Shown here piece after piece: positions 31,599 through 41,631 of a stretch of 64,000 bases of DNA (position 1 is the first letter of the stretch; each line of letters starts with the position of its first letter). This DNA comes from Pseudomonadota bacterium (GTDB lineage: Bacteria > Desulfobacterota > Desulfobacteria > Desulfobacterales > JBDRRP01). Both the position numbers and the translations under genes were made by a program. The stretch covers positions 1-64,000 of the forward strand of contig JBDRRP010000115.1 in NCBI GenBank assembly GCA_043825735.1, in the 5' to 3' direction. Under the pieces are notes generated by a model, which saw nothing but the letters and a program-made list of their open reading frames with translations, was not told where the DNA came from and made no database searches.

Positions 31599-31635
31599 CA
31601 TTTTTAATTGACTCTGAACGAGTTGATCGATGGAA

Positions 31636-31845
31636 AGGGGCCAAGGGTCCGAGGGTTCAAGGGGCCGAGTAAAAAAACGGCAAAAACTTTCTGTGGACCT
31701 GGCTTTGAGGCCATCGCCTGCAGGGGAGTGTTTTGACCGAGTCTCTTACGTGCTGAGTTGATCGGCTGCCACCGCCAGTTTGCCAAGCATGCTGCGCATC
31801 GCCGTCGCTTGGCCCCTTGAACCCTTGACCCCTTGGACCCTTTTT
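31636..31845. repeat. 8-periodic GGGKYCAA inverted-arm element
   Basis: GGGGCCAAGGGTCCGAGGGTTCAAGGGG...CCCCTTGAACCCTTGACCCCTTGGACCC; second copy at 34265-34495. Confidence 0.7.
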
Positions 31846-31913
31846 CCTATGAATTCATAGAAGACCCGAAATTTTACCAATATCAACCACCACCGCCACG
31901 TTGGAGATGAGCC

Positions 31914-32888: not shown

Positions 32889-32915
32889 GGGGCGTTATCC
32901 GACGGATCGGACCGA

Positions 32916-33077
32916 AACGATCAAAACGATCCCAACGATCCCAACGATCCTAACGATCAAAACGATCCCAACGATCAAAACGATCCCAACGATCCTAACG
33001 ATCCTAACGATCAAAACGATCAAAACGATCCTAACGATCCTAACGATCCTAACGATCAAAACGATCAAAACGATCCC
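32916..33077 (+). repeat. 18 x 9-bp tandem repeat AACGATC(AA/CC/CT)
   Basis: Counted by hand: 162 bp, exactly in phase, each unit contains GATC. Confidence 0.95.
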
Positions 33078-34264: not shown

Positions 34265-34615
34265 GGGGCCAAGGGTCCGAGGGTTCAAGGGGTCAAGGGG
34301 TCGAGTGAAAAACAACAAAGAAAACAGCAAAATACATCTGCGAACCGCAAGGCTTTGGATCACCTACATTGAGGACGCCATTGGATCTCACCGCTGACAT
34401 GATGCGGGGATCGGTTGGCGGCCGAAAGAGTACTGAAAAACGCCCCAATGCCGTCACTTGACCCCTTGACCCCTTGAACCCTCGGACCCTTTTTTCAATT
34501 AAATGGCCGAAGACCCAAAAAAATTCATCGCGCAGAGCCGCGGAGACGCAGAGAACTTCAGAAAATTAAATTGCATGAGTGTCTTTACCCTGCGCCTCAG
34601 CGCCTCTGCGCGAGA
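34265..34615. repeat. 8-periodic inverted-arm element followed by a CGCAGAG element
   Basis: GGGGCCAAGGGTCCGAGGGTTCAAGGGGTCAAGGGG...CCCCTTGACCCCTTGAACCCTCGGACCC; then TCGCGCAGAG...CTCTGCGCGAGA. Confidence 0.7.
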
Positions 34616-34898: not shown

Positions 34899-35504
34899 AT
34901 GAAAATCCGCGATCTGATGATCCCAGACCCCATCACGATTTCCGTGAAGGCCTCCGTTCAGGAAGCCATCCAGATCATGAAGATCAATTCCATCCGACAC
35001 CTGCCGGTGGTCAACAAAAACAAGCGCCTGGTCGGGTTTCTCACCCTTGCCGACCTCAAGCAGGGCCTGATCCCTGCCATGGTGGCGGACGTCACCCTGA
35101 AGGATCTCATGATCCATGACCCCATCTGCGTAAACCCCGACGATGACATCGAAATCGCCGCCCAGTTCATTTACAAACACAAGATCAGCGGACTGCCTGT
35201 GGTCAAGAACGGGATGGTAGTGGGCATTCTCACCGAGAGCGACATCTTGCGCGCCTTCATCGACATGATGGGCATTCTTTCGGCGACATCCCGCGTCGAT
35301 GTCTTGATCAACCAGGGACAAAAAGGGCTGAAAAAAGCGATCCACGTCATCAACAAAATCGGCGGCGACATCATCAACATCGTGATGTCGCCCCAGGACG
35401 GCGAGGACCGGATGTACTGCTTTAGACTGACGGCGTGCAAAACGGCCGTCATCAAGGCGGCTCTCGAAAAGGAGGGCTTTGCGGTGGTCAGCACGGCAGG
35501 CTGA
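34899..35504 (+). CDS. CBS-pair plus ACT domain protein (AcuB-like)
   Basis: IRHLPVV...LVGFLT, ISGLPVV...VGILTESDI; C-terminal ACT-like domain. Confidence 0.8.
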   Translation: MKIRDLMIPDPITISVKASVQEAIQIMKINSIRHLPVVNKNKRLVGFLTLADLKQGLIPAMVADVTLKDLMIHDPICVNPDDDIEIAAQFIYKHKISGLPVVKNGMVVGILTESDILRAFIDMMGILSATSRVDVLINQGQKGLKKAIHVINKIGGDIINIVMSPQDGEDRMYCFRLTACKTAVIKAALEKEGFAVVSTAG

Positions 35505-35508
35505 CCAA

Positions 35509-35906
35509 TGCGCCTGGCGGCGCGTCAATTGCCCCTTCGGGGCGTCACAATGTTGGCTTCGCCAACGTCAATTGCGTCTGCGACGCGTCACTTGCGCCTG
35601 GCGGCGCGTCAATTGCCCCTTCGGGGCGTCATTTGTTGGCTGCGCCAACGTCAGTTGCGTCTGCGACGCGTCATATGCGCCTGCGGCGCGTCAATTGCCC
35701 CTTCGGGGCGACAATGTTGGCTTCGCCAACGTCAATTGCGCCTGGCGGCGCGTCAATTGCCCCTTCGGGGCGTCAATGGCGTCTCTGACGCGTCATTGAC
35801 AGCGAGTGCAGCGAGCGGTTGACGCCGGCGAAGCCGGCATTTGACGGTCGCGAAGCGACCATATGACAGCGAGTTCAGCGAGCAGCTGACGCCGGCGAAG
35901 CCGGCA
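35509..35906. repeat. Array of 19 short hairpin modules tagged with GTCA/TGAC, in two opposed arms
   Basis: 14 forward modules TG-hairpin-CGTCA, then 5 reverse modules TGAC-hairpin. Confidence 0.85.
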
Positions 35907-35909
35907 TAT

Positions 35910-38027
35910 TCAACCGCGATCGTCCGCGGCGTGGATGGCGGCCAGTGAATTGAGCTGCAAGGTGAGCGGCCGATCCTCTTCGCTTTGTCCGGTAAAACGG
36001 ATGGGCCCGGGTCGCCTGAAATGATCATCTCCGGGGGTAGCGGCCAACCACTTTTCGCGGTTGGCTTTCACGACGCGGAAAGACACCGAATGAGTGTCGA
36101 CAATGCTCTTTTCCAGCACCAGCGACAGTCGCCCCTGCCGCTCTTCCAGATGCATCAGCGACGCGATGGGAACGCCCAGCGGCTGCCACTGTGAAAAATC
36201 CTGTTCAAGATTCCGGATCACCGCCATCTGACCGGTAGCACCGTTGGCGATGAGGCTGAAAACGGTGAGGCCGAGATTGTACGTGTAGTTGCAGTCGAAC
36301 CGGGTCGGATCGCTGCCTCTGCCGTCATAGCCGTAAAAGTGGGTCTGAGTCTTGAACTTGGGATCCGAGGCTTTGTAGATCTTCAGAACCGCCGCCGGCA
36401 GGCCCTTATCATTGGCAATGAGGCCGGCCTTGCTCAGCGCCTGCCCCAAGGTCTTCTTGGATATGATGGTTTCGTGGAAAAGCAGGTAATCATCCCGACC
36501 CCAGTTGCGAAACAACACCGGACCAAACTTCGTCGAGTCCAGTGATTCTGTGGCAAGCACTTTTTCAAAGAACCGCTTTTCAATACCGATCTTGTATTTT
36601 CCCTTTTCCTTGAGAATATTCAAATAGTCCCTCACCAGACCCAGCAGCACCTTGTCGGTCTCCACTAGAGAGAACTGGAAATTCCCGTGGCTGTCCCTTT
36701 CGGAAAGAAGCCCCTCCTGAAAAAACTCAGGGACGTCGTTGAACAGCTCGTCATCACGGGTACTCCAGATGGAAAGACCGCCGTTTTCCCTTGATAGAAT
36801 CGCCTGCCGGCGCAGGTACTCCAGCTTGTCCGGCAGCCGCGGGAACGCAGAGTGAAAATCGATGTCGTGCGTGCGGTTATATTCACCGATGAGGGTGTTG
36901 AGTTTGATGATGAAAATCTGAATCTCATTGATGAACTCCAGGACCCCTTCCGGAATAACGATGACGCCAAAGTTTTTTCCGGCCGCGGCCCGGCGGACAA
37001 TGCCGTCACAGATGACCCGGGAGAGGTGGCGCAGGGTCATCCCGTAGGCGGTATAGTCCGTGGCACCGCTTTTACTCGCGGCCGCCAACCGCTGCTGGTC
37101 CACATACTCCGCCAGATCCTCGCCGATCAGCGTCATGTTGGCATGGGTCTGAAGCGCGACTTCCAGTGCCAGATGACTGGCCACCCGCCCCATCACTTTA
37201 CAGATGTGCCAGTATTTCACATCCGAGCTGGCGTCGGTGCACAGGTTGCCGATGTTTTGCGAAAAGGCCCGGGCCGCCGTGTGGAAGCCAAAGGACATGG
37301 CGCACAAGACCTCACCGCTGGCATCGCGCACCTGGATATCGCCGTCGATCGTTTTGGGCACCCCGATGACCTGCACACCTTCCCTAAAGAGCTCCTGGGC
37401 GAGAAAAGCGGCGTTGGTATTGGAATCGTCGCCGCCCACCACCACCACGGCATCCAGGTTGAGCGCGGTGCACGTCGCCCGTGACAAGGCCATCTTTTCA
37501 GGGGTGTCGATCTTCGTGCGACCGGTTTTGATCATGGTGAAACCGCCCAGATTCCGGAAAGCGTTGACGCGCTCGGCGGTAATCTCCACGGCCTCGTTTT
37601 CGATGATCCCGTCGGGGCCGAGCATGAAACCAAATACGACCGTGTCGGGATTCACCCGCTTGGCGGCATCGAAAATCCCGGCGATGACATTGTGGCCGCC
37701 GGGTGCGGGCCCCCCCGAAAACACGATACCGATGCGACGCGCCTTGCTGTAGCGTGAAACAAACGCGGCATCGGGGGCGTTCATGGCAACGATACGCTGC
37801 ACTTTGTTGCCAATGATGTCGGGCAGTTTCTTTCTGGCCTCTCTGTCAATGTCGAACCGGTAGCCGTCCATTTCATCCAGGCCGGTGTAAGCACGGCAAA
37901 AGACATCGGATGCCGGCGGCACATACTGGTTACGCTCGATCAACTCCTGATTGACGTCGTCGGTGGCCGCCCTGGCCACCGGGTGATCGAGCAGGGCATC
38001 AAACGCAGCGTCCTGGGATTCGTTCAT
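35910..38027 (-). CDS. pfp: Pyrophosphate-dependent phosphofructokinase (long type, with insertion)
   Basis: SGGPAPGGHNVI, GGDDSNT, PKTIDGD, MGRVASH, FYGYDGR. Confidence 0.85.
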   Translation of the reverse strand: MNESQDAAFDALLDHPVARAATDDVNQELIERNQYVPPASDVFCRAYTGLDEMDGYRFDIDREARKKLPDIIGNKVQRIVAMNAPDAAFVSRYSKARRIGIVFSGGPAPGGHNVIAGIFDAAKRVNPDTVVFGFMLGPDGIIENEAVEITAERVNAFRNLGGFTMIKTGRTKIDTPEKMALSRATCTALNLDAVVVVGGDDSNTNAAFLAQELFREGVQVIGVPKTIDGDIQVRDASGEVLCAMSFGFHTAARAFSQNIGNLCTDASSDVKYWHICKVMGRVASHLALEVALQTHANMTLIGEDLAEYVDQQRLAAASKSGATDYTAYGMTLRHLSRVICDGIVRRAAAGKNFGVIVIPEGVLEFINEIQIFIIKLNTLIGEYNRTHDIDFHSAFPRLPDKLEYLRRQAILSRENGGLSIWSTRDDELFNDVPEFFQEGLLSERDSHGNFQFSLVETDKVLLGLVRDYLNILKEKGKYKIGIEKRFFEKVLATESLDSTKFGPVLFRNWGRDDYLLFHETIISKKTLGQALSKAGLIANDKGLPAAVLKIYKASDPKFKTQTHFYGYDGRGSDPTRFDCNYTYNLGLTVFSLIANGATGQMAVIRNLEQDFSQWQPLGVPIASLMHLEERQGRLSLVLEKSIVDTHSVSFRVVKANREKWLAATPGDDHFRRPGPIRFTGQSEEDRPLTLQLNSLAAIHAADDRG

Positions 38028-41269: not shown

Positions 41270-41325
41270 TGCCGGAACCTGCGCATCCCGTCTCAAACCG
41301 ACCTTACTCACAGCGTAGAATGTGA

Positions 41326-41402
41326 ACCACGAAGACCACGAAAAAAACCCTGAAAACAGAGGGGTTGGAAAACCTTCGTGTCCTTCGTGAACTTCGTGGT
41401 GA
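41326..41402. repeat. CACGAAG inverted-arm element
   Basis: ACCACGAAGACCACGAA...CTTCGTGTCCTTCGTGAACTTCGTGGT. Confidence 0.6.
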
Positions 41403-41631
41403 TCAACAGCCCTAAAACGCAATATATTGTAGCCCGACACGCCCACACACCCCGCAAATTGTGTTTCCGCTTTACAGGCCACCGGCTGTTTGGTATATTG
41501 CGCCATTCGATGCCGACAATACCGCAGGGCACTGATCGCCATATTGACACACCCCTCGGCGACCTGTTTGCGTCGTCTGAAGTCCCGAGCCCCGCGGTAC
41601 CGGTTCGAGACGACTTTCAAGGGATGAACGC

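Follow-up and report, generated by a model that had tools for sequence, protein, structure and literature searches.

The window (the whole 64,000-nt stretch of DNA analysed) contains an array of 19 hairpin modules that is very probably a non-autonomous, gene-less copy of a cassette in which a four-helix-bundle gene lies between an arm of modules ending in GTCA and an arm of modules starting with TGAC. The array is real and widespread, is not a described REP, and is a structured variant of this gene-plus-arms cassette, which settles in gene junctions, usually directly after a stop codon. On balance, with some reservation, we favour a reading in which such arrays are empty cassette copies, with arms that serve as single-stranded DNA platforms for the protein, are moved by host enzymes, and change by block duplication and module exchange.

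The 14 + 5 modules, each 20-23 nt in length, are arranged in two divergent arms that fill the approximately 400-bp gap between a gene for a CBS-domain protein (34899..35504, plus strand; Pfam PF00571) and a phosphofructokinase gene (35910..38027, minus strand; Pfam PF00365). Both are flanking host genes outside the element, the edges of which are 3 bp past the CBS stop codon and 2 bp short of the phosphofructokinase stop codon. The left arm (35508..35795, minus strand) has 14 modules of types A, B, C, and D, in the order ABCD ABCD ABC ABD, all of which end in GTCA except for one B module (GACA); read on the minus strand, the unit is TGAC followed by a 5-6 bp stem, a GNA or GCCA loop, and a 2-4 nt tail. 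This arm is made up of two four-module ABCD blocks with a period of 83 (35508..35673) and the shortened blocks ABC and ABD (35674..35795). A single T (35796) forms the centre, at the site that the four-helix-bundle gene occupies in full cassettes (L363, L364, L366, L369, L337, and L344), and is followed by the right arm (35797..35907, plus strand), with five TGAC-starting modules in the order E F G E F. The sequence bears out the two-arm, 19-module array with a flip in polarity that was reported in the preliminary description. The unpaired tag is GTCA/TGAC, the C of the CGTC given there belonging to the first stem pair; module E, said to pair poorly, is more than a weak stem, being of the tandem G.A type, the family having tandem G.A/A.G at stem pairs 3-4.

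The longest chain in the window of TGAC followed by a perfect 5-6 bp hairpin has nine members, compared with one at most in 200 out of 200 second-order Markov simulations. The DNA of the array has a folding z of -5.4, with 0 out of 100 shuffles equally stable. Both flanks and the outer modules are identical in an independent assembly of run X1, in which no one piece covers the full array.

A gene associated with such arms is present in G061, where a truncated four-helix-bundle gene has a module arm directly upstream. At this locus (L248:1400-1760), the gene breaks off after approximately 70 codons and runs into the first part of the next gene, the fusion point apparently being a short sequence common to both, and the right arm is lost. 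Protein queries with the truncated gene and its relative L337, in searches of 401, 301, and 351 genomes, retrieved a subfamily of genes with GTCA arms upstream and TGAC arms downstream. The arms consist of hairpin modules at L363, L364, L366, L369, L361, L337, and L344, and of bare heptamers (TGACnnn) at L338, L359, L362, and L374; the L310 gene has a complete two-armed array on either side. Across 70 four-helix loci, TGAC arms are present at 17 out of 24 close members and 1 out of 46 others (Fisher p 7e-10) and hairpin modules at 10 out of 24 and 0 out of 46, respectively, in a count where close members have at least 52 % identity to L337 (a cut-off set post hoc), kin are treated as independent, and the ends of distant genes are approximate. 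Three of the 24 close genes were found via the DNA pattern, and without them the figures are 17 out of 21 for arms and 8 out of 21 for hairpin modules. Hairpin modules are carried at approximately seven unrelated junctions, and five cassettes are at one junction. A clade of 12 rows in the tree (support 92/86), from at least two phyla, has TGAC arms in every row, under a loose arm label and without 20 loci missed by the motif script, the 70-locus count being the fuller of the two. The arms are coupled to this one subfamily; since gene and arms are physically linked, co-inheritance alone could yield the coupling.

At one junction, between an aminotransferase gene and a glyoxalase-family gene, which we take to encode methylmalonyl-CoA epimerase, the four-helix-bundle gene is kept in G003, G980, G1002, G923, and G851, and a gene-less array is present in G001. 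Of all the observations, these arms without a gene at a shared junction argue most directly for an origin of empty arrays in full cassettes. Protein, profile, and DNA-profile searches did not find the subfamily gene in the source genome (G000; 100 % complete, 160 contigs), nor is there a gene remnant in the array centres of this genome; the arrays of the source genome would then be orphans, or the gene is unassembled. It was also not found in the array-bearing genomes G062, G064, G065, and G018, and is present alongside arrays in G056 and G063 and, truncated, in G061. Within the source order, one of the two array-rich genomes has the gene, as against 10 out of 349 others, a weak co-occurrence.

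No catalytic partner is linked to the cassettes, the neighbours of which are housekeeping genes. All-against-all BLAST of 2180 ORFs near arrays identified no neighbour gene common across phyla, and Pfam searches of 84 of the 133 ORFs on the inner side of arrays returned host genes or nothing. The GxxExxY nuclease was considered as a partner and rejected; its genes in the source genome have other arm words, and searches of G062, G064, and G065 did not find it.

Scans with no loop-sequence requirement identified 11 arrays on eight contigs of the source genome, all at gene junctions and ten with two divergent arms. Roughly twelve stem types recur at more than one of these loci and, when split by eye, seven arrays have types A, B, D, I, and H in one arm and E, F, and G in the other. 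The arrays are clustered, with five pairs less than 20 kb apart when approximately 0.3 would be expected. Synteny with G001, a genome of the same genus with genes 73-85 % identical, joins contigs C127-C101 and C106-C3 of the source genome. Nine array sites can be placed in G001. Five of the junctions are empty there, these being the junction in the window, where the spacer is 36 bp, both C127 sites, C101, and C155, while the C106 array is common to both genomes, with four modules in the same order. The array site upstream of coaE has a different context in G001, and a 3.3-kb block with both of the C3 TGAC arrays (C3:7670-11000, L400) is absent. G001 has three arrays of its own, and two of these junctions carry other-word elements, of the CACGAAG type, in the source genome (C48:33075-33345 and C90:44000-44300). 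Copies have therefore been gained or lost between the two species, and some junctions have been reused. With 11 arrays in one genome and a design that recurs in several phyla, this is a dispersed family of elements, as had been suggested, and not the duplication of a single locus.

The L400 block also holds a universal-stress-type gene, a DksA/TraR zinc finger, a 320-aa ORF, and a YefM/ParE-type toxin-antitoxin pair. A separate 150-bp repeat (C127:9273-9423), with 90-99 % identity, occurs more than 20 times in the source genome, once next to the C101 array.

The three-tag pattern is present at no fewer than 113 loci in genome contigs and at 64 in metagenomes; on inspection by eye, 50 out of 80 flanked genome loci and 46 out of 64 metagenome loci were kept as true arrays. 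Records with arrays are titled Rhodothermales, Kiritimatiellae, Bacteroidales, Rikenellaceae, Aminicenantes, and Omnitrophota. Pattern matches number 19-65 in each of five such genomes, and of the 351 genomes within the source order two are array-rich (78 matches in G000 and 125 in G056), the next highest having 13. Two DNA patterns and one protein query identified no loci in viral contigs. At least eight long arrays lie within approximately 110 kb of G056 (C3:80000-192000), around an intact cassette gene, and this cluster suggests local spread.

On the TGAC strand, the module is TGAC with a 5-6 bp stem, a 3-4 nt loop, and a 2-4 nt tail, and the grammar of TGAC, stem, and C(GNA)G loop always falls on this strand, in both arms. 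G-N-A loops are present in 21 out of 22 distinct 20-nt modules and 32 out of 37 distinct 22-nt modules of the source genome, closed by C-G in nearly all cases; there are no T.C loops. Stems in these modules are 95-100 % Watson-Crick; the exception is the long type at pairs 3-4, with tandem G.A/A.G in 10 of the 37. The first stem pair is G-C in 22/22 and 33/37, and the tails are mostly Ann. At these same pairs 3-4, which are free of the search-pattern bias that affects the loop counts in this set, 74 out of 220 distinct 22-nt modules from other genomes have tandem G.A/A.G, eight have one half alone, and approximately 1 % have the mirror mismatch T.C/C.T. The pairs flanking the tandem G.A covary, with four Watson-Crick combinations in the 220 modules, in agreement with the earlier observation that stem sequences change while pairing is kept. 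There are no tandem G.A modules in G056 (0/31). Bare TGACCAA and TGACAATAAA units are interspersed in the hairpin arrays. Three arrays of G064 (L043, L090, and L163) have AT-rich, weakly paired 22-nt modules in one arm and GC-rich hairpins in the other.

Beside genes found by protein alone, the loop and G.A rule applies to the antisense strand in upstream arms (10/10) and to the sense strand in downstream arms (17/21). This indicates that both strands are used, each in the half nearest its own 3′ end, and for that reason DNA fits better than a transcript; the arrangement also resembles the overhangs of Streptomyces telomeres (PMC7205883). The same strand pattern could arise if one arm were copied onto the other, but the arms of the source genome use different stems. 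Tandem sheared G.A pairs are stable in DNA. Because template switching would perfect palindromes, retention of the tandem mismatch suggests that one strand is under selection. ViennaRNA DNA energies do not favour the TGAC strand (27 better and 49 worse out of 80); the parameters are not known to include terms for GNA loops and sheared pairs. A d(GNA) loop with a sheared G:A pair and a C:G closing pair is, in the accessible text of PMC3201870, an unusually stable DNA form. In either arm the grammar is confined to the TGAC strand, which suggests that the DNA folds as a single strand, and folding of this kind is likely, from the sequence comparisons, to be the selected feature of the modules. The strand pattern fits DNA better than the processing into small RNAs that was proposed previously, but the accompanying idea that the hairpins act as single strands is retained, the single-stranded form being judged the likely functional form. 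No RNA run was found to cover the array, and two RNA runs from the same study contain almost no sequence of the source organism, too little to bear on expression.

As to module order, identical neighbours are absent in the source genome (0/86, when within-arm shuffles expect 4.6, P 0.003) and in G056 (0/111, versus 11.6 expected), while blocks of two to five modules occur duplicated and runs of one identical module are present in some Bacteroidales arrays. The earlier view that slippage does not account for the array is supported in so far as single-module repeats are lacking in the source genome, but duplication of whole blocks is seen in (ABCD)n and (EFG)n. Any of three processes could account for the avoidance of identical neighbours: selection for independent folding, rapid loss of single-unit duplications, or templated addition.

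The partner protein is a member of PF05635, to which 16 out of 16 aligned members match, and is over the cut-off for TIGR02436. Its predicted structure (pLDDT 88.5) matches the folds of 2GSC, 2RLD, and Avd (4DWL, TM 0.72), and the match extends to Avd in the reverse-transcriptase complexes of diversity-generating retroelements (DGRs; 4DWL, 8UB7), with sequence identity to Avd of 9-10 %. Resemblance of PF05635 to Avd is noted in the available part of PMC10053308, and the family is known, from the accessible text of 10.1101/2024.02.27.582315, from rRNA intervening sequences (IVSs) cut by RNase III. Avd is described in the portion of PMC6182149 available as a pentameric, basic, non-catalytic nucleic-acid binder that binds RNA. 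The partner is probably a pentamer without catalytic activity; that it binds the arms directly, as the model would have it, is an evenly balanced proposition.

In the proposed mechanism, the TGAC strand of each arm would fold as single-stranded DNA into a row of independent mini-hairpins, with C-GNA-G loops and tandem sheared G.A pairs, and with its 3′ end pointing outward from the element. The Avd-like protein would recognise TGAC plus hairpin and would protect the folded ends or deliver them to a host recombination or repair activity, such that empty copies could spread in trans. Arms would lengthen as blocks of at least two modules are duplicated, and copies would exchange modules at the common TGAC word. 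A more far-reaching version, which we put forward tentatively and think somewhat unlikely, is an undescribed class of mobile element with an Avd-like pentamer as its sole protein, reading a four-base word plus strand-specific DNA mini-hairpins; a host polymerase or reverse transcriptase would add to its telomere-like arms one module at a time, with identical neighbours avoided, and there would be one arm word per subfamily, which would also explain the heptamer repeats of many bacteria.

A cassette that instead acts in RNA, in the manner of an IVS, is unlikely. In that case, the transcribed arms would anneal to each other as a long imperfect stem, and the operon would be spared the effects of the insertion because this stem either loops out the gene or is a substrate of RNase III; the protein would bind this RNA, and the mini-hairpins would be secondary. 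Predicted RNA folds do join the upstream arm to the downstream arm, by 43-138 pairs in seven gene-bearing cassettes and 17-143 pairs in ten arrays of the source genome, and both the occurrence of the family in RNase III-cut IVSs and the RNA binding of Avd would be in keeping with this. However, the arms are unequal (14 versus 5 in the window) and have different stems in seven arrays of the source genome, because of which a perfect long-hairpin model was rejected; the loop and G.A rule of upstream arms is on the antisense strand; and the array in the window is between convergent genes.

A satellite of retro-elements, in which the Avd-like protein makes use of a reverse transcriptase in trans, cassette RNA is made into cDNA, folded TGAC ends guide insertion, and template jumping adds modules, is distinctly improbable. 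The fold match to Avd and the resemblance of PF05635 to it favour this explanation, in a cDNA the upstream arm would present its antisense face, the non-repeating module order fits template choice, and RVT_1 matches are present in the source genome; yet there is no reverse transcriptase beside 16 cassette loci (37 neighbour ORFs scanned), no RVT_1 match in G003, G062, and G064 (three of five genomes searched, these being drafts), and identity to Avd is low, as given above.

Least probable is a BIME/REP-like mosaic in which an HUH tyrosine transposase reads TGAC as its guide tetranucleotide and the four-helix gene is a passenger: REPs likewise have a tetranucleotide on the 5′ side of a hairpin (PMC3733652, accessible text), Y1 genes are present in all six array-bearing genomes searched, and the L163 array adjoins one, but only 1 of 38 Y1 loci has two or more modules within approximately 400 bp, Y1 matches are also present in 6 of 14 control genomes, and the arms bracket the four-helix gene at approximately seven unrelated junctions. 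The match at that one Y1 locus is below the family cut-off, and the link to HUH/RAYT enzymes made in the preliminary description is not sustained. Nor is membership of the CGTC-REPs, from which the modules differ in stem, loop, tag, and dimer arrangement: those repeats have 8-9 bp stems and 4-5 nt loops, as against 5-6 bp and 3 (some 4) nt here; in the descriptions accessible, their foot has A-T as the first two pairs, an unpaired CGTC, and a CCA tail, while here the first pair is nearly always G-C, the C is paired, and the tails are mostly Ann; and they are mostly head-to-head dimers with negligible head-to-tail arrangement, whereas head-to-tail runs here reach 14 modules. GTAG REPs and REPtrons have a GTAG-type tetranucleotide and a RAYT gene flanked by repeats, neither of which agrees with a TGAC tag and the single sub-threshold Y1 locus. 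No Rfam family is over its gathering score (Gut-1 29.6/50, Xoo1 22.3/70, STAXI 18.1/40.5 bits). None of the known REP or Rfam families compared fits. No description of TGAC-hairpin arrays, or of arms around PF05635/TIGR02436 genes, was found in the literature searched, which mostly excluded subscription papers; the additional files of PMC3733652, a source accessible in part, could list further repeats. A minigene reading, based on the ATG/TGA overlap in ATGAC, was dropped on inspection because modules of 20-23 nt do not keep to one frame.

Among known systems, 23S rRNA IVSs with a 23S_rRNA_IVP (S23) ORF share the PF05635/TIGR02436 family, inverted arms, and ORF-bearing and ORF-less forms. The full cassettes elsewhere encode a PF05635 protein and the window copy has no ORF; unlike IVSs, hairpin cassettes are located between protein-coding genes, not in rRNA, and their arms are mosaics of mini-hairpins. 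Heptamer-armed four-helix cassettes likewise have inverted short-word arms that bracket a gene at a gene junction, an arrangement seen for 17 of the 24 subfamily genes, whereas in G000, G062, G064, G065, and G018, genomes with empty copies, the cognate gene was not found. Cyanobacterial STRRs are heptamer-type repeats, and Nostoc has small dispersed repeats. Heptamer repeats and inverted pairs have been reported (GGGAATC, PMC4692102; TAACTGA, PMC4679880), and the plain cassette arm is also a TGACnnn heptamer, into which the cassettes here have inserted a structured hairpin; the accessible text of these two sources makes no link to a four-helix gene family. REP, BIME, and REPIN elements with REPtrons, as presented in the available part of PMC3733652, have clustered intergenic hairpins, a four-base tag, one gene-bearing locus, and many empty copies in common with the arrays, which differ in the TGAC tag, 5-6 bp stems, many stem types head-to-tail in divergent arms, and a non-HUH partner. 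Streptomyces telomeres also have short palindromes in rows, with GCA/GNA loops and sheared G.A pairs, and are described as withstanding single-strand nucleases where ends are exposed (PMC7205883, text available in part), but they lie at the termini of linear replicons and have terminal proteins, whereas the TGAC element is internal and has no such protein, so this is an analogy only. Avd of DGRs has the same fold, but the cassette loci have no reverse transcriptase in the 37 neighbour ORFs scanned, and no template repeat or variable repeat was noted at them.

For PF05635, of which structures have been solved (2GSC, 2RLD) and the function is unknown, the arms are the first concrete candidate target. 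This candidate ligand is sharply defined and has built-in controls in the opposite strand and in changes to the loop and G.A pairs. Bacterial heptamer repeats are of unknown origin, and there is now a tie, spanning phyla, between one protein subfamily and one DNA word. On comparative grounds, the C(GNA)G loops and covarying tandem G.A pairs speak for selection of mini-hairpins in chromosomal DNA and, if the protein mobilises empty copies in trans, this would be a REPIN-like system without a transposase.

Other arm words are also present. Arms with other words, at GxxExxY genes or other four-helix genes (L223, L226, and L166), occasionally have GCC-GNA-GGC mini-hairpins. Within the window, gene-less divergent-arm elements with a GGGGTCAA-like heptamer or octamer word are located at approximately 31635-31850 and 34265-34495, and a word of this kind also flanks the four-helix-bundle gene L165 of the source genome. 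Short divergent-arm elements with nine-base words, of the CGCAGAG and CACGAAG types, lie at approximately 34520-34610 and 41325-41405, and similar words flank GxxExxY genes in the source genome. At approximately 32915-33075, about 18 tandem copies of a nine-base unit (AACGATC core) precede a radical-SAM gene, with copies on other contigs.
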